From: an uncultured Nitrososphaerota archaeon
GTDB lineage: Archaea; Thermoproteota; Nitrososphaeria; Nitrososphaerales; Nitrosopumilaceae
Length of the DNA: 64,000 nt
Direction of reading: 5' to 3'
Assembly: GCA_963701075.1 (NCBI GenBank)
Contig: OY969559.1
Location: forward strand, 32,001 to 96,000
Every line of letters starts with the position of its first letter. The first letter of the stretch is position 1. Shown piece by piece: positions 34,995 to 42,190 of this stretch. Under the pieces are notes generated by a model. The model saw only the letters and a list, made by a program, of their open reading frames with translations, ran no database searches and had not been told where the DNA came from. The translations under genes were made by a program, and so were the position numbers.

Positions 34995-35806
34995 ATGGAA
35001 AAAATTGAGATTTTAGAGCAAGCTGCAAAAAGAGTCTATGAGAGTGTCAAGCACCTTCCCGGAACAGAAGATGCTGCTGGAGATTTTGGCAGAGGGGCAG
35101 GCGGAGACATATCACGACGAATAGACATAGTAGCAGAGAAAACAGTTTTGGATTACCTAAGAGAGGTTAATTTTCCATGCATAGTTCTTGGCGAAGAATG
35201 CGGTAAGATTGAACTTTCAAAAAATCCTGAAGGCATCATAATAATGGATGCCGTCGACGGATCTACAAATGCAGTAAGGGGTATTCCCTTTTCGTGTTGT
35301 TCTCTTGCATTTGCCACAAAGGATAAGCTCAGCTCTGTTACTGACGCAGCAATCATTGATCTGTACACTGGTGATCTGTATTCTGCATCAAGAGGCAAAG
35401 GAGCTTTTATGAATGGAAAAAAAATCACAGTTCACAAGAAAAAGCCGCTTTACTTTGTGGTAGGATTGGATTTGTCTGGGATATCGCTAGACTCCCTGCA
35501 GAAATTATCCCCCATCATTTCAGCATCTAACCATATCAGGCATTTTGGTGCCGTTGCACTAGAGCTTGCAATATTTGCTCGTGGACTGGTAGACCTGTTT
35601 GTAGACCTCAGAGAAAGCTGCGAGTCACAGATGTTGCTGCTGGGTACCTTATCGCACTAGAGGCCGGCGGAATCATAGTTGACAAAAATGCAACCCCACT
35701 TGATTCAGATCTTGGCTATGACCAAAGAATTTCCTTTATCGCTGCAGCCAGCGAGGAAATACTTGATGAAACTCTTGAGAAATTGAATTTACCAAAGCGA
35801 CTCTAA
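34995..35806 (+). CDS. Inositol monophosphatase / FBPase class IV; -1 frameshift at ~35615
   Basis: LGEECG, DAVDGSTN; the C-terminus LRVTDVAAGYLIALEAGG lies in another frame. Confidence 0.88.
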
Positions 35807-35846
35807 CAAAAGATCGACATTTGATTTTGGGTGAAAAAAGTGTAAG

Positions 35847-35954
35847 CGCCCTTGGCGGGATTTGAACTCGCGTCGAGGCCGTGACAGGGCCCCATTCTAG
35901 ACCGGGCTATACAAGGATTGGATTTTACCCCAAGCCTCTCTATACTACAAGGGC
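35847..35954 (-). tRNA. tRNA-Asp(GUC) with a 33-nt D-loop intron at 15/16 (35907-35939)
   Basis: GCCCTTG/CAAGGGC acceptor stem, anticodon GTC; the intron forms a hairpin with a relaxed BHB. Confidence 0.88.
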
Positions 35955-36013
35955 GTTGAAATATTGGGAACAAAAATCTGAGTTTAAAGCTTTCTTTTCA
36001 TCTAAAAATTTTG

Positions 36014-36021
36014 TAAAAGAC
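36014..36021 (+). repeat. Left copy of the 8-bp direct repeat (putative TSD) TAAAAGAC
   Basis: Identical to 37269-37276; abuts the left inverted repeat. Confidence 0.7.
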
Positions 36022-37268
36022 GTCTTTGCCAACATATGGGAGATATATATCATAATTACCCTGCTCTTTTAAGAAAACCAGCATGTGAATGCATATTGCA
36101 AAAGTAATAAAATGCGTCTGGCAATTTCATGATAAAAAAGACGATCTCAGACAAGTTTTTGATTATTTTAGATATTGTGCAAACGAGGCAATCAGAATAG
36201 GTATAGAAAAAGATCTCACGTCAAAATACAAGTTACATTACCAATTATATCATACACTGCGTCTACATTCACAGTTTCATTCCAAGTATGTCTATGGAGC
36301 ACTAGAATGTGCGGCGTCAAAGTTAAAGATGTATAAAAAGACATTGAAGAAAAAACTAGATGCTAAAAGGCCATACATTACAAGAAATCATCTCATACTT
36401 GACAATCAGTCATACAAAATTGAACATGATACAATCAGGATACCAATTAAGGCTACAAAATATCTATCCATTAAACTGACTAGTTATGTTTTAGAGAAGA
36501 TAAAGCATACAAAACTTGGTAGTCTTGTTATCACAGATGATAAGATCATAATCTCATATTCAAAAGAGATTCCAGAACAGAGACATGGTAATTTTATTGG
36601 TGTTGATAGAAACTTGAACAATGTAACCATATGGGATTCCAAAGGAGATTGTATTGTACACGATCTGTCTAGTGCCCAGAGAATAATCACTTTATATAGT
36701 ACAGTAAAAAGCAAATTCAGACGCAATGATTCCAGAATAAGAAAAAAGATTTTCCAAAAATATGGCAGACTACAGAAGAATAGAGTACAAAATATCTTAC
36801 ACTGTACATCCAAGAAGACAGTATCTCAAAATTCTGGAATTGTCATGGAAAACCTGAAAGGAATACGCAAACTGTATAGACGAGGAAACTGGCAGGGAAG
36901 AAAGTACCGGAGAAGATTGAACTCTTGGTCATTTTATGAACTGCAACGACAGATCGAGTATAAAGCAAGATGGCTTGGTCTGCCGGTAGAATATGTCAAA
37001 GCAGGTGGGACAAGCACAAGGTGTGCGGTATGTGGGTCAAGACTAGTACCCGAAGAGCACCGAAAGATGTTCTGTCCTACTTGCAAGAGTAGTGTTGACC
37101 GAGACATCAACGCTGCTCACAACATCTTGCTTCGAGGCACATGGGTCGTGCCAGACGGGACTGCAGGTGAAGCGGTGATGACAGAATCTGGTAGCAAGGA
37201 ACCGGTAATCTGTCGAGTCGATGCAGTCAAGTCAGGTCATCGGCATCTGCCGATAACTTGTCAGAGCC
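36022..37268 (+). mobile_element. Non-autonomous tnpB-only element with imperfect IS6-like TIRs and an 8-bp TSD
   Basis: Left end GTCTTTGCCAACATATGGG-AGAT vs reverse complement of right end GGCTCTGACAAGTTATCGGCAGAT (17/24); flanked by TAAAAGAC on both sides. Confidence 0.7.
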
Positions 37269-37279
37269 TAAAAGACTAA
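36089..37279 (+). CDS. tnpB: RNA-guided endonuclease TnpB (Cas12f-like)
   Basis: RuvC I GVDRN, RuvC II VMENL, WSFYELQRQIEYKA, zinc finger CAVC/CPTC, RuvC III DRDINAAHNI. Confidence 0.93.
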   Translation: MHIAKVIKCVWQFHDKKDDLRQVFDYFRYCANEAIRIGIEKDLTSKYKLHYQLYHTLRLHSQFHSKYVYGALECAASKLKMYKKTLKKKLDAKRPYITRNHLILDNQSYKIEHDTIRIPIKATKYLSIKLTSYVLEKIKHTKLGSLVITDDKIIISYSKEIPEQRHGNFIGVDRNLNNVTIWDSKGDCIVHDLSSAQRIITLYSTVKSKFRRNDSRIRKKIFQKYGRLQKNRVQNILHCTSKKTVSQNSGIVMENLKGIRKLYRRGNWQGRKYRRRLNSWSFYELQRQIEYKARWLGLPVEYVKAGGTSTRCAVCGSRLVPEEHRKMFCPTCKSSVDRDINAAHNILLRGTWVVPDGTAGEAVMTESGSKEPVICRVDAVKSGHRHLPITCQSLKD

Positions 37280-37290
37280 ATTATACACAA
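37130..37290 (+). ncRNA. Putative omegaRNA (scaffold overlapping the tnpB 3' end; guide from ~37269)
   Basis: TnpB loci generally encode omegaRNA at the right end; hairpin CAGGTCATCGGC-ATCT-GCCGATAACTTG at 37233-37260; boundaries approximate. Confidence 0.6.
37269..37276 (+). repeat. Right copy of the 8-bp direct repeat (putative TSD) TAAAAGAC
   Basis: Identical to 36014-36021; abuts the right inverted repeat. Confidence 0.7.
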
Positions 37291-37306
37291 CTATGACCTT
37301 TCGCGT

Positions 37307-37380
37307 GGGTTCGTAGCTCAGCCAGGTAGAGTACCGGACTTTTAATCCGGCTGTCCGGGGTCCGAATCCCCGCGAACCCG
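37307..37380 (+). tRNA. tRNA-Lys(UUU); integration target
   Basis: GGGTTCG/CGAACCC acceptor stem, CCGGA CTTTTAA TCCGG anticodon arm. Confidence 0.93.
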
Positions 37381-37448
37381 CTTCTTCATTGGTCTCTTTT
37401 TGGGACTCAAGTAGCTGAAAACCCGTCCGCATTTCTCAATTCCAATGG

Positions 37449-38703
37449 ATGGTATGGGATATCATGAGCGGCAACATTAGGCTCTCAGCAGACGAGATAA
37501 AATCAGGACATGAAAATGCCCTTGACATCTTCTACTCCGGGATAAGATCTTCTGAGACTCGCAGAACAATGAACGGCAACCTCGAAAAGTTTCTTCTGGA
37601 CGCATGTGCCGATATATTCAGTGGAGATTACAGGGAGAGGGCAAGACAGTTTGCAGAGATGGCAAAGGAAGACCAGGAAAAGGCCACAAGTCTTGTCTTG
37701 GCATATGCGCGAAAGCTAAGGGAGAGGACTATGCTGGATAAATCAAATCCCGGCTATCTCAACCCCTCTACTCTGCCAAACAAGGTAAAGGCAGTCAAAA
37801 AGTTCCTTGACATGAACGGCCTCGGCCTTGGCTGGAAGAGGGTCTATGTGACATTTCCAGATAAAGACAATACCCACAAGGGAAGGGGATACACAAGACA
37901 CGAGTTGCAAAAGATGCTAGAGTATTCTCGTTCAATCGAGACTGATTTTGTAATACTTGCATCAGAGCTCTGGAGGTTTCAGGTCGGGCTCATGGAATGG
38001 CCAGAGATGGGAGAACGTATTTCCCATCTATGAAGTAAACGGTACATACAAGATAGAGATTGAAAAAGATGATGCCGCAAATGTTGTCTGCGCCGGCATG
38101 GTAATCTACAAGGGAACACCAGACGAGTATGTCTGTCTTATCTCACTTGAGGCCTGGAATAAGCTTGTAGAGTACAAAAAGATCTGGACCGAGAGGATGA
38201 AGAGGCCTCCGACAAGCTCTGATTATCTGGTACTTGCAAGATACGTCAAGCCAACACCGATAACGGATCTGGCAATAAAAAGAAGAATATGGGTGCTGCT
38301 TCTAAGGACTGGCCTTAGGAGTCCGCTCACAGAAGGTCGCAGAAGACACCAAGTTCCTATCACCAACGGGTTTAGACGATACTGGGATAGAATAATGATG
38401 GAGAACGGAAAGAGGCGCGGCACGCTCTCTGCCCTTGTGATAAAGGAGAGACTAATGGGCCATACAGGCGTGGTTACAACAGACAAGAACTATTTCTGGA
38501 CCGATATACTGGACCTTGTCCCAGAATACTTGGATGCCATGCCGGAGCTTGTGGTAGGCGAGGAGATGAGGTTGAGGCACAAGCTTGAGATTGAAAAACG
38601 GGAAAAGGAAAAGCTTGCCGCATCAAACAATGAAAAGGAACAAGCGCTGCAAAAGTTGGCAGAACTAGAGGCCAAGGTACGACGGATGGAAAAGTACAGC
38701 TAG
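37449..38703 (+). CDS. int: Tyrosine integrase; +1 frameshift at ~37965
   Basis: SSGGFR (R), YKG (K), NGFRR (HxxR variant), LMGH, DKNY (Y); C-terminal coiled coil. Confidence 0.85.
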
Positions 38704-38709
38704 ATAAGA

Positions 38710-39753
38710 CTAGGACCTTTTCCCAGTTTTCTTTTTGTTTGACTTGTTAATTCTTCGCCGGTTTGAATGGTATACCGTGGGCTTGCCGTAATCTGCTTTT
38801 AAAAAATCCCTATCCATCAAGAGCGATATGTCTGAAGCATTAATCCAAGCATGAGCACTTTCTTTGACTAGTAGTCTGTACCATCTTTCATATTCTTTCT
38901 CTCCTATACCATGAAATAATTTGATCCTGTTGCCAATCTGTTTCATTGATATCTTTGATTTCTGAGATGCATCCTTTTTTGTTTCTAATGCGTTTACAAG
39001 AAATGTAGACAGTAACTCTTGAGCGTAAAGTCGATTAGTCAAGAGTTTGTTATAAAACTCGATGTCTTCGCGGTGGTCCCTGTTCAGATCGTCAGAGAGT
39101 TCTTTAAAACTTGAAAAAACCCTTGAATGAAAATTTAGTTCCTCGCCATATCTTGACAGAAAGTCTCTAAAGTTGGCCAGAAAGTTGACGATCTGCCCTT
39201 CTCTGAGTTCTTTTCTACGAATGGCAATGTAATCTCCAAACTTTTTATTCCTGCTGTATTCCATCAGCAAAATCTTCACTTTTAGGATATACATGATGAC
39301 GAGTTTTCTTAGAATTTGCTCAAATGGCAGCAGGCCAGAATTAATTTTCCATTTATACACCATCAATCCTCTTCTTAATGCTCCTTTCTTCATGCGTGCC
39401 ATTCCTCCTTTGAGGCCATAATAGGCGACAAATTTACTGTAAAAGTTACTCTTTGAAATCTGCTCATTTGATTCCATAAGTGAAGAGACCGCATCTTTTA
39501 GCAACAAATGATTGGCTGTGGTGGTTTGAAAAGGCTCCAAATGTCTGGGAACAAAATAGACTTCAGACGCCCACCAATTCCTCTTTTTCATGGTATTGTG
39601 TTTAGTAAAATATTCCAGGTCTGCTTTTACATCCTCCCAGTTTTTTGAAGCACGGCTTTTCTTGTGTATTTCATACAAGGTTGAAAAGGGATTAGCTATA
39701 ACATAATCGAGAACTCTTGACCGTCTGTAAGATAACCCGTCAGTGGGTATCAT
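38710..39753 (-). CDS. Hypothetical basic protein, possible N-terminal winged helix
   Basis: 347-aa ORF; RVLDYVIANPFSTLYEIHKKS...DLEYF resembles a wHTH. Confidence 0.6.
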   Translation of the reverse strand: MIPTDGLSYRRSRVLDYVIANPFSTLYEIHKKSRASKNWEDVKADLEYFTKHNTMKKRNWWASEVYFVPRHLEPFQTTTANHLLLKDAVSSLMESNEQISKSNFYSKFVAYYGLKGGMARMKKGALRRGLMVYKWKINSGLLPFEQILRKLVIMYILKVKILLMEYSRNKKFGDYIAIRRKELREGQIVNFLANFRDFLSRYGEELNFHSRVFSSFKELSDDLNRDHREDIEFYNKLLTNRLYAQELLSTFLVNALETKKDASQKSKISMKQIGNRIKLFHGIGEKEYERWYRLLVKESAHAWINASDISLLMDRDFLKADYGKPTVYHSNRRRINKSNKKKTGKRS

Positions 39754-39890
39754 AGGTCAATTTCACATATGACCATAAAGAAGGATCGTTTTTGTAAAAA
39801 GATACAAAGCAGATCACTTTGGTTTACCAAAATGAGGGTGACTAACCGCAGAACAGCGTTCCCTATCTAACTTTATGCTGTTTTACATTC

Positions 39891-40052
39891 ATGGCAAACG
39901 AGTTTTCACACAAAAAGATCTGCATCAGCCTGCCAGTATGGCAGATAAAGATGCTACAGGAAGAACAAGGAAATCTTTCCATGTCAAAGCTCATCTCTGG
40001 ACTTGTTAACAGGGAACTCATGGAGCAGAGAAAAAAGAGGAAACAAGATTGA
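39891..40052 (+). CDS. CopG/ribbon-helix-helix protein, 53 aa (absent from ORF track)
   Basis: MANEFSHKKICISLPVWQIKMLQEEQGNLSMSKLISGLVNRELMEQRKKRKQD*. Confidence 0.65.
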   Translation: MANEFSHKKICISLPVWQIKMLQEEQGNLSMSKLISGLVNRELMEQRKKRKQD

Positions 40053-40201
40053 TAACACTTGGATGTACTCATACACCAAAGAGTTACAGGATGACCTTTG
40101 CCTGCAAGACAACAGGAGATTATGTCCTTGAACTTTGTGGGAACTGTCATGATTCTGAGAGCAGGGATTTCCTCATAAATGAGGAAGAAATTAAAAATTG
40201 A
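40049..40201 (+). CDS. 50-aa putative zinc-binding protein (absent from ORF track)
   Basis: MITLGCTHTPKSY...LELCGNCHDSESRDFLINEEEIKN*; TTG start overlaps the RHH stop (TTGA). Confidence 0.55.
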   Translation: MITLGCTHTPKSYRMTFACKTTGDYVLELCGNCHDSESRDFLINEEEIKN

Positions 40202-40209
40202 ATCACTTT

Positions 40210-40719
40210 TTACTTCCAAGTTTCTGGGTTTTCACAAAAGTCGCATAGATCGCCGGATACCAGTTCCAGAAAGTGACAAACTGCAGTCTCCAAATATCTC
40301 TGAAGTTCATGTATTCCAGTTATTTTGCCGTCCTTCATCCATCCTGCCATCTCGAACAGAACCTTGATGAACCCTGCTGGAAGTACTGTCATTTTTTTCA
40401 TCTCGCAAAATTTGTCGTACATTTCCTTTACATATTCGGGACTGAGTTGAGTTTTTACAACTATATCACATAGAGATTCTCCTTCCTCAAATAGTTTGAA
40501 TAGAAGAGCCGCATTGGGGTCCTTATTTTCGGAGTCACTTGCCTGACTTGTGAATTTCTGCTTTATTTTGCTTATCCCGCTTATGTTGAATTTCTTGATT
40601 CTGCCGTCAATTCTGTATCTTGTCTTTACAATTTCACTGTAACTTTCTCCGCGTTGTATTCTTCTGAATATGTCCTTTTCTACCTCATCGAGTGTCATGT
40701 CTTTCTGTATTTTCTTCAT
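40210..40719 (-). CDS. Hypothetical protein with HTH-like segments and a C-terminal CxxC
   Basis: IQRGESYSEI and LFEEGESLCDIVVKTQLSPEYV; CDFC. Confidence 0.6.
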   Translation of the reverse strand: MKKIQKDMTLDEVEKDIFRRIQRGESYSEIVKTRYRIDGRIKKFNISGISKIKQKFTSQASDSENKDPNAALLFKLFEEGESLCDIVVKTQLSPEYVKEMYDKFCEMKKMTVLPAGFIKVLFEMAGWMKDGKITGIHELQRYLETAVCHFLELVSGDLCDFCENPETWK

Positions 40720-40767
40720 TAAAGATTTGGACGGAAGTATGAAGTAGATAAGTTTTTGAATGATCTT

Positions 40768-40814
40768 CTTGTTTTCTCTTGTTTTCTCTTATTCTCGCTT
40801 GTTTTTCTTGTTCC
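40768..40814. repeat. Five degenerate ~10-bp tandem repeats (CTTGTTTTCT)
   Basis: CTTGTTTTCT CTTGTTTTCT CTTATTCTCG CTTGTTTTT CTTGTTCC. Confidence 0.7.
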
Positions 40815-40977
40815 TAGTGGTACTTTACACTACAATTAATCTTGAAATTAGTTGCCTAGTGCCGCATATAGTATCTACTAGGTAGTGGAACGTAGCAGAA
40901 CCGGTTTCAAACTATACTCTTAGAAGTCTATTTTAGTAAATACCTATTCCATTATACAGAATTTTCAGTTTAAAATC

Positions 40978-41785
<808 letters not shown>

Positions 41786-42190
41786 CTATATCACTCCTCA
41801 ATTTCTGGCACGACTATCTGACTAATAAATAGGCAAGTGAGTGAATCGCAAGTTATGAGAGACCAGTTGCTGAACTGTAATAATCCTCATCCACTAATAG
41901 AAATTAACAAGTGGCGGTCTACAAGATCGTACAGCCAGTAGTTCCAATGCACAAAATACGTAGACCGCTGGATGAAAATTCATTTCACATTATCTAAGGA
42001 TTTACTATTGTTTTTCCATATGCTATATGATAGTACGGTATAATCATTTTAAGAATAAAAAGTCAATACAAGTTTCTAAAGTGAGGATCAGAATTTTAGG
42101 CCATGGCAAACTTTACTATGAAGACTGTGTTCTCAATGTAATAATAAATCAGATACTTTGAAAAAAATACTGGCAATGAAAAAAATTATT

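Follow-up and report, generated by a model that had tools for sequence, protein, structure and literature searches.

The subject of this study is an insert carrying the gene tnpB, found in a stretch of 64,000 nucleotides (the window) from the genome of an uncultured Nitrososphaerota archaeon of the family Nitrosopumilaceae (GCA_963701075.1, contig OY969559.1). The genome, designated here as G000, is a single contig (C1) of 1.92 Mb with 38.6% G+C and is 95% complete, the window corresponding to G000:C1:32001-96000; numbers preceded by G, C and L denote genomes, contigs and loci, respectively. Between the genes for tRNA-Asp (minus strand) and tRNA-Lys (plus strand) lies a discrete insert of 1,247 bp at window positions 36022-37268, bracketed by two copies of the 8-mer TAAAAGAC, and no credible open reading frame (ORF) besides tnpB was found inside it. 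Its two ends pair as an imperfect inverted repeat, agreeing in 17 of 24 columns with one gap. A preliminary description, made from the letters alone, had reported the abutting 8-mers, the inverted repeats and a tnpB unaccompanied by any transposase gene, and all three were recovered here. An end-to-end alignment score as good as that of the element was reached by none of 20,000 random pairs of equal spacing drawn from the genome, and a direct repeat matching at 8/8 positions occurred at the element's spacing in 63 of 2,000,000 trials (~3e-5). The coordinates of all the features are collected in Table 1.

Table 1 Features of the tnpB insert (window coordinates) and flanking repeats of the TnpB copies in the same genome (coordinates preceded by G000:C1)
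Feature	Position	Strand	Basis or match
Left copy of the 8-bp target-site duplication, TAAAAGAC	36014..36021	.	Single copy in 8/8 empty orthologous sites
Left terminal inverted repeat, degenerate, GTCTTTGCCAACATATGGGAGAT, tip GT instead of GG	36022..36045	+	17/24 columns against the reverse complement of the right end
tnpB, 396 amino acids; last three codons and stop are duplication or flank DNA	36089..37279	+	Pfam PF07282
Predicted omegaRNA scaffold up to the right end, in overlap with the 3' third of tnpB; extent inferred	36929..37268	+	Synonymous constraint and consensus fold
Predicted terminal stem-loop, GTCAAGT (37226-37232) pairing with ACTTGTC (37256-37262); inner hairpin ATCGGC/GCCGAT (37239-37254)	37226..37262	+	Helix 10, 7 pairs
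Right terminal inverted repeat, outer end first GGCTCTGACAAGTTATCGGCAGAT	37245..37268	-	Left end of the IS240-type element is its closest counterpart in the genome
Right copy of the 8-bp target-site duplication, TAAAAGAC	37269..37276	.	Sequence and empty sites
Predicted omegaRNA guide, duplication plus the flank upstream of tRNA-Lys	37269..37290	+	Inferred by analogy with known TnpB elements
Window copy of TnpB, duplication TAAAAGAC			8/8
TnpB copy, duplication TTATTGTC	G000:C1:1776729-1778006		8/8
TnpB copy, duplication TATTTGAC	G000:C1:243783-245058		8/8
TnpB copy, duplication TGCTTTAA	G000:C1:1209216-1210506		8/8
TnpB copy, flanking repeat	G000:C1:170124-171403		7/8

The product of tnpB matches the Pfam family PF07282 (Cas12f1-like_TNB; E 6.1e-19) as well as solved TnpB and Cas12f chains. 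Its reading frame crosses the right repeat as well as the adjoining 8-mer copy and ends at a stop codon (37277-37279) that is flank DNA. The residues D173, E254 and D339—presumably those of RuvC-I, II and III, judging by the motifs GVDRN, MENL and DRDIN, and the three acidic residues pointed out in the preliminary description—are invariant in 15 relatives, and so are the cysteines C312, C315, C329 and C332; the protein is predicted to have a zinc finger and to be active as a RuvC nuclease. The gene is under purifying selection, the ratio of non-synonymous to synonymous substitution rates (dN/dS) against eight copies being 0.10-0.20.

Concerning the site of the insertion, a search of 40 relatives with window positions 35500-37800 showed that the matches to the left and right flanks overlap by exactly 8 bases in many genomes of the genus. 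In all eight loci read base by base (L020, L027-L032 and L039) a single TAAAAGAC lies between flanks collinear with those of the window, with few substitutions; the spacer between the two tRNA genes thus collapses to one copy of the 8-mer, as the preliminary description had anticipated for an empty allele. With the empty locus of G006 as the query, one uninterrupted match across the site was obtained in 46 of the 60 other genomes of the genus, four of the 46 being unpublished (G012, G019, G044 and G050) and seven genomes not being scorable. It should be noted that several of the loci rest on unpublished genomes—the same-site element of G011 and also L016; L015, L040 and L066 (G019); L023 (G012); L059 and L065 (G050 and G044)—and that these genomes, together with G168, are counted in the search of 40 relatives, in the empty-site tally of the genus and in the tallies of TnpB and IS240 for both genus and order.

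As to the occupied sites, G052 has the same insert with identical ends (the left repeat included) and duplication at ~96% identity, and in G008 there is a remnant comprising the 3' 211 bp of the insert alone, with an identical right junction. A different TnpB element, with other repeats and 37% amino acid identity to the window TnpB, is inserted in the unpublished G011 at the identical nucleotide, and there too TAAAAGAC is duplicated. Unrelated inserts in G020, G043 and G065 (L122, G065:C56) share the right junction with the window element. In G049 (L119, G049:C155) the order TAAAAGAC, 16 bp, TAAAAGAC is a possible footprint, which hints at loss events, and there is also a 1.55-kb insert after GCTTTCT. 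The reuse of one site could be explained by target preference, by IS26-like targeting of resident ends or by RNA-guided homing. The spacer is an insertion hot spot: a ~310-bp insert is located between GCTTTCT repeats in G061 (L121, G061:C3), and inserts of 259 and 312 bp span GCTTTCT to the TAAAAGAC junction in G020 (L026, G020:C19) and G043 (L120, G043:C11), the one in G020 being G+C-rich and giving no Rfam match.

The genome of the window contains nine TnpB loci of several families, with perfect 8-bp flanking repeats at four, a 7/8 repeat at one and none at four. In the own genome, the genus and the order, inverted repeats of other TnpB families have the tips GG(T/C)TCTG; family C possesses a perfect 22-nt inverted repeat, GGTTCTGTCAACTTGATGGCTC, and family-A copies in relatives end in ...AACTTGACAGTACC. 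When the flanks of homologous copies were compared, as proposed in the preliminary description, the copies were found to terminate in ...CAG(A/T)(A/G)CC with 8-bp repeats differing by locus, e.g. TAATATAT (L017 and L018), TAATTTAA (L019) and GAAAACCG, L015 from the unpublished G019 matching at 7/8; perfect 8-mers also flank L090, L091, L092 and L093 in relatives. Among 23 loci from other genera of the order, perfect 8-mers are present at five (L098, L100, L102, L103 and L110), 7/8 repeats at two, and inverted repeats with no duplication at four. The architecture thus belongs to a TnpB clade and not to a single copy; tnpB itself was found in at least 13 of the 64 sampled genera of the order. 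Scanning with the consensus repeat at up to three mismatches returned 259 matches, mostly due to chance, of which only paired ones with few mismatches were used. At G000:C1:113330-113384 two GGTTCTGTCAA-type inverted ends directly adjoin each other in a 55-bp unit, and a solo remnant at G000:C1:1252801-1252852 resembles the right end; either could be a miniature derivative of this type of transposon. A further unit, of 2,386 bp with GGTTCTGTCGAGTTGAC inverted ends (G014:C1:1611586-1613971), contains a partial tnpB and ~1.6 kb of other DNA.

These data bear on the reading of the insert as an ordinary IS200/IS605 (IS1341-group) or IS607 element, with a Y1 or serine TnpA as its mobilising enzyme and with repeats that arose from a chance likeness of target and end sequence. 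That reading is favoured by the perfect 6-bp inner hairpin near the right end (37239-37254), as in IS605-type ends, and by the IS200/IS605 family holding most of the solo TnpBs according to the main text of PMC10691335. The flanking 8-mers, however, vary by locus and are therefore derived from the target rather than from the element. Moreover, the inverted repeats of 22-30 nt and the target duplication are both present here, whereas the family has no terminal inverted repeats and makes no target duplication (PMC13565253, PMC3119063). Profile searches of this single-contig, 95%-complete genome gave no match to the Y1 transposase (PF01797) or to the resolvase-type serine recombinase (PF00239). 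An origin of this kind is considered highly improbable.

A candidate partner was found among the IS240-type transposases. The family PF13610 (DDE_Tnp_IS240) is represented in 37 of the 61 genomes of the genus and, in the genome of the window, at exactly one place, where an ORF of 456 amino acids with an InsA-like zinc ribbon (G000:C1:1817801-1819171; DDE_Tnp_IS240 at 67-69 bits, cut-off 27) and a 265-amino-acid ORF of unknown function make up an element of 2,278 bp (G000:C1:1816906-1819183). This element has the ends GGCTCTGTAAAGTTATCGGC and GGCTCTGTACAATCAACGGC and a perfect 8-bp duplication of its own, TGTTTGAA. Its left end and the right end of the window element, GGCTCTGACAAGTTATCGGC, have 18 of 20 bases in common. 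On neither strand does any other place in the genome come as close, four mismatches being the next best result, and the two ends of the IS240-type element agree less well with each other, at 16 of 20. An IS6-type transposase with matching ends, which the preliminary description had recommended looking for, is thus encoded in the genome. In relatives, related repeat variants are common to TnpB elements (family F and mini-elements) and to the transposase loci L042, L046 and L049.

Among the matches listed, TnpB and IS240 never occur in one contig neighbourhood, and the TnpB elements are therefore solo. The joint distribution of the two nevertheless speaks for a connection. Both are present in 22 genomes of the genus, TnpB alone in six, IS240 alone in 15 and neither in 18; at the level of the order, IS240 was found in 16 of 18 TnpB-positive versus 60 of 133 TnpB-negative genomes, these counts being drawn from relatives that are not independent samples and from genomes some of which are incomplete or unpublished. 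A scan of ten IS240 loci for GGNNCTG..AA, combined with inspection of the ORF ends, defined the ends of some only (L045, L048 and L050), and those of other, larger IS240 elements were not found in this way. For the IS240-type element itself no clean empty site was found, its right flank being a variable island. After ...ATTGTTTGA(A/T), one and the same nucleotide marks the beginning of different IS6-type left ends at G000:C1:1816898-1816905, L062 and L063 (also at the unpublished L059, L061 and L066). At the position that corresponds to the left side of the IS240-type element, such ends were found in G006, G048 and the unpublished G019 and G050; the variable island downstream of them contains fragments of IS240-type transposase genes.

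The resemblance of the ends might have another cause, namely that a different transposase making 8-bp duplications moves the TnpB element and the IS240-type element merely has similar end motifs. Room for such an enzyme is left by the six TnpB-positive genomes of the genus with no IS240 match, by the repeats of G014 TnpB elements that were not found at IS240 loci, and by the fact that the searches covered a handful of transposase families. Against it stand the uniqueness of the 18/20 match in the genome, the duplication length of 8 bp in both element types, the repeat variants shared with transposase loci of relatives, and the different ends of the IS4/IS5-type copies; this explanation is regarded as unlikely. 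IS256-type and ISL3-type transposases (PF00872, PF01610) were not found in the own genome, and the 13 IS4/IS5-type copies in G000:C1 have unrelated ends (CTCATCCTAAAAC and GAGTTACGCAGTTGA) and short flank repeats of a few bp. By Pfam, these copies represent two insertion sequences (9 and 4 copies, e.g. at 452246 and 456100) of ~880 bp and ~1,090 bp; those that were aligned (5 and 4) are nearly identical, which suggests recent activity, and none is located in the region of the TnpB insert.

It thus appears probable that a DDE transposase of the IS240/IS6 type, acting in trans, binds the repeats at both ends and brings about insertion of the unit with a stagger of 8 bp. The 1,247-bp unit would then represent a non-autonomous transposon with IS6/IS26-type ends and tnpB, overlapped by its omegaRNA, as the sole gene. 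The transposase would have inserted it between tRNA-Asp and tRNA-Lys, and staggered cuts 8 bp apart would have led to the duplication of TAAAAGAC. The likeliest enzyme would be the transposase of the IS240-type element described above or a close relative, which, to judge from the similarity of the ends, may act on those of the window element. The mobilisation in trans by an IS6-like DDE transposase, put forward in the preliminary description, is supported by the end match, the duplications and the empty sites.

Several observations weigh against this mechanism. The proposed partner is atypical for IS6, being 2,278 bp long and having two ORFs and a 456-amino-acid transposase with N-terminal zinc-finger extensions. 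IS240 was not detected in six of the 28 TnpB-positive genomes of the genus (G004, which is 99% complete, G007, G020, G047, G051 and G058), and the active TnpB family of G014 has repeats that turned up at TnpB elements alone, none being found near the three IS240 matches there. The left end of the window element agrees with the left end of the IS240-type element at 12 of 20 bases (counted by hand); with so poor a left repeat, tipped by GT, the window copy may no longer be mobile. Its insertion is not recent either, since the insert shared with G052 at ~4% divergence must predate the split between G000 and G052. Among the family-A copies, L002, L021 and L033 have no clean duplication, and the repeats are not of 8 nt but of 12 at L014 (G008:C93; TTTTTTAATAAC) and of 10 at L034/L035 (G004:C73, G007:C18; TTAAACATAG). 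Finally, nothing consistent resembling a target-adjacent motif (TAM) was found 5' of the duplications across the sites of the own genome, relatives and order. The sequence RTGY, located 5' of the duplications in three of three cases of family C, was considered as a TAM and dropped as inconsistent at other sites.

The flanking repeats of 10-12 nt at two loci could also mean that TnpB itself inserts the element, a staggered RNA-guided cut being filled in to give repeats of variable length and the ends reflecting omegaRNA or DNA structure. The presence of different elements at exactly one site, which rests on the unpublished G011, and the footprint in G049 would fit as well. The duplication is, however, exactly 8 bp in most clean cases, that of the transposase element devoid of tnpB included, and the left end bears the same repeat though no omegaRNA is there; moreover, we know of no TnpB that integrates DNA. 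Insertion by TnpB seems scarcely credible, and insertion by an IS240/IS6-type transposase is the explanation preferred here.

Concerning the omegaRNA, the proportion of differing synonymous sites in tnpB is 0.61-0.74 over codons 1-280 and drops to 0.13-0.43 over codons 281-381 in all five pairs compared. The non-synonymous divergence across the same codons shows hardly any change in four of the pairs and a decrease in the fifth, so that the segment 36929-37231 is constrained by something besides the protein. A consensus fold of 37037-37268 is 95.8% paired across 12 published copies, as against 26-52% with the partners slid, and contains 13 double-change cells versus 5.4 +/- 2.4 in shuffles, the structure having been predicted on the same alignment that was later used for counting the pairs. 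The fold is rich in switches between G-U, G-C and A-U, fitting an RNA of the plus strand. The inner half of the right repeat supplies the 3' arm of its terminal helix, the first pair of which changes from G-C to A-U in three of the 12 sequences. No Rfam family matches the 3' region of tnpB. A search for sequencing runs brought up just two, containing 0.06-0.07 of the sampled words, a share that is not taken as evidence of expression. The synonymous constraint and the conserved fold reaching into the right repeat are consistent with an omegaRNA. The preliminary description's suggestion of a right repeat that also serves as the scaffold end gains indirect support from the conserved terminal stem with its compensatory changes and from the suppressed synonymous change.

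The omegaRNA would run through the right repeat, whose inner half would serve as the 3' arm of the last stem, and the guide would therefore begin with the duplicated 8-mer at 37269 and continue into the flank, by analogy with known TnpB elements. In four copies of family C there is no internal variable segment between scaffold and repeat, and positions 37269-37290 are identical in the eight empty sites read.

According to the accepted rationale, Y1 or serine transposases excise an element without leaving a scar and TnpB restores it afterwards, and the IS6 family is thought to move replicatively, without excision. The rationale is not obviously applicable to a target-duplicating, supposedly replicative DDE family; tnpB is nonetheless under purifying selection and spread across the order. 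It is conceivable, though rather doubtful, that a whole archaeal clade of TnpB and omegaRNA is the cargo of IS6-type DDE transposons, having the right repeat in the last omegaRNA stem and guides that start with the new 8-bp duplication. On this view TnpB would have no donor site to repair, since IS6-type movement leaves no excision scar; it would cut empty alleles (TAM, duplication and flank), and recombination following an exchange of DNA among strains would carry the element into them. If this were true, it would explain both the same insert and junctions in G000, G052 and G008 (as a remnant) while closer relatives are empty, and the reuse of one nucleotide position by different elements. 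The defined ends, the candidate partner transposase and the many natural filled and empty sites make the role of an RNA-guided nuclease in a DDE transposon with terminal inverted repeats testable, and likewise the start of the guide relative to the target duplication. Solo tnpB genes should not be annotated as IS200/IS605 by default.

The neighbourhood of the insert deserves a few remarks. Directly after tRNA-Lys, ~4.8 kb have been inserted (37382-42187), the empty-site query resuming at G000:C1:74188 (window 42188), and ~16 nt of the 3' end of the tRNA are repeated. This DNA opens with two overlapping ORFs, 37449-38033 and 37957-38703, neither matching Pfam, the latter having a C-terminus that looks by eye like a tyrosine recombinase. 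Inserts of 2.6-4.8 kb occupy the same place after tRNA-Lys in G047, G052 and G055, and the one in the window is probably an integrative element targeting tRNA-Lys. On the other side, ARAGORN gives a tRNA-Asp of 70 nt (35848-35917), where the Rfam tRNA model stays below its threshold; the acceptor stem seems to close at ~35957 (region 35846-35957), and if so, the tRNA-Asp could be ~112 nt long with an intron at a non-canonical position.

Transposons of this general kind have precedents. Fanzor, the eukaryotic homologue of TnpB, was reportedly found by Bao and Jurka in 2013 inside DDE transposons with terminal inverted repeats. The window element resembles these in having an RNA-guided RuvC nuclease as cargo and target duplications, Fanzor belonging to eukaryotic or viral hosts and other transposon superfamilies (PMC13565253), whereas here the host is prokaryotic and the transposon of the IS6 type. 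Among prokaryotes, six DDE-transposase-associated TnpB branches (DDE-1 to DDE-6), all with inverted terminal repeats, are described in the main text of Altae-Tran et al. (2023, PNAS; PMC10691335), together with solo TnpBs whose ends are nearly identical to those of transposase-bearing elements, read there as mobilisation in trans. Common to those branches and the window element are a TnpB within an inverted-repeat transposon and a tnpB 3' end near the transposon end (main text of PMC10691335); unlike in them, transposase and tnpB are never in one element here, among the matches listed. The doubt as to novelty voiced in the preliminary description was justified in that both TnpB in DDE transposons with inverted repeats and solo copies moved in trans are already in print (PMC10691335, main text). 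IS630 is the only DDE partner named in that main text, from which IS6, IS26 and IS240 are absent, its supplements possibly including the present group, and a 2026 review gives ISL2, IS630 and IS1031 (PMC13565253). A literature search for TnpB paired with IS6, IS240 or Thaumarchaeota brought up no relevant description (by title or abstract for IS6). The general class is thus known, and the IS6/IS240-type pairing was not found described in the main texts searched.

With the archaeal IS1341-group TnpB-only elements and PATEs (PMC3119063), the present elements share a solo tnpB, a length of ~1.2-1.5 kb, many diverged copies per genome and frequent decay; the former differ in lacking both inverted repeats and a target duplication, in having subterminal palindromes and in depending on a Y1 TnpA (PMC3119063). 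The hallmarks of IS6/IS26, as given in the main text of Varani et al. (2021; PMC7986276), are 8-bp repeats, short terminal inverted repeats, GG tips and a cTGT motif, classical members being ~800 bp long with one transposase ORF of ~230-250 amino acids; a single member with a passenger gene is counted there, and TnpB is not mentioned in that text. The window element has the 8-bp direct target repeats and, with regard to the repeats of 15-20 bp with GG tips and a cTGT core, its right end, GGCTCTGACAAG, conforms, its left end, GTCTTTGCCAAC, is degenerate, and sister families have GGTTCTGTCAAC at both ends. The 8-bp duplication, the GG-tipped inverted repeats with a CTGT core and the Pfam DDE_Tnp_IS240 transposase are thus held in common with the IS6/IS26 elements of that text. 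Unlike these, the window element carries TnpB and its putative omegaRNA as cargo and has no transposase, and the partner transposase, of 456 amino acids with zinc-finger extensions, comes from a 2.3-kb element with two ORFs. In place of the internal transposase and the length of ~800 bp that characterise IS6 proper, the window element has tnpB alone and 1,247 bp, and it is therefore classed as a non-autonomous, cargo-carrying derivative of IS6 rather than as a member of that family proper.

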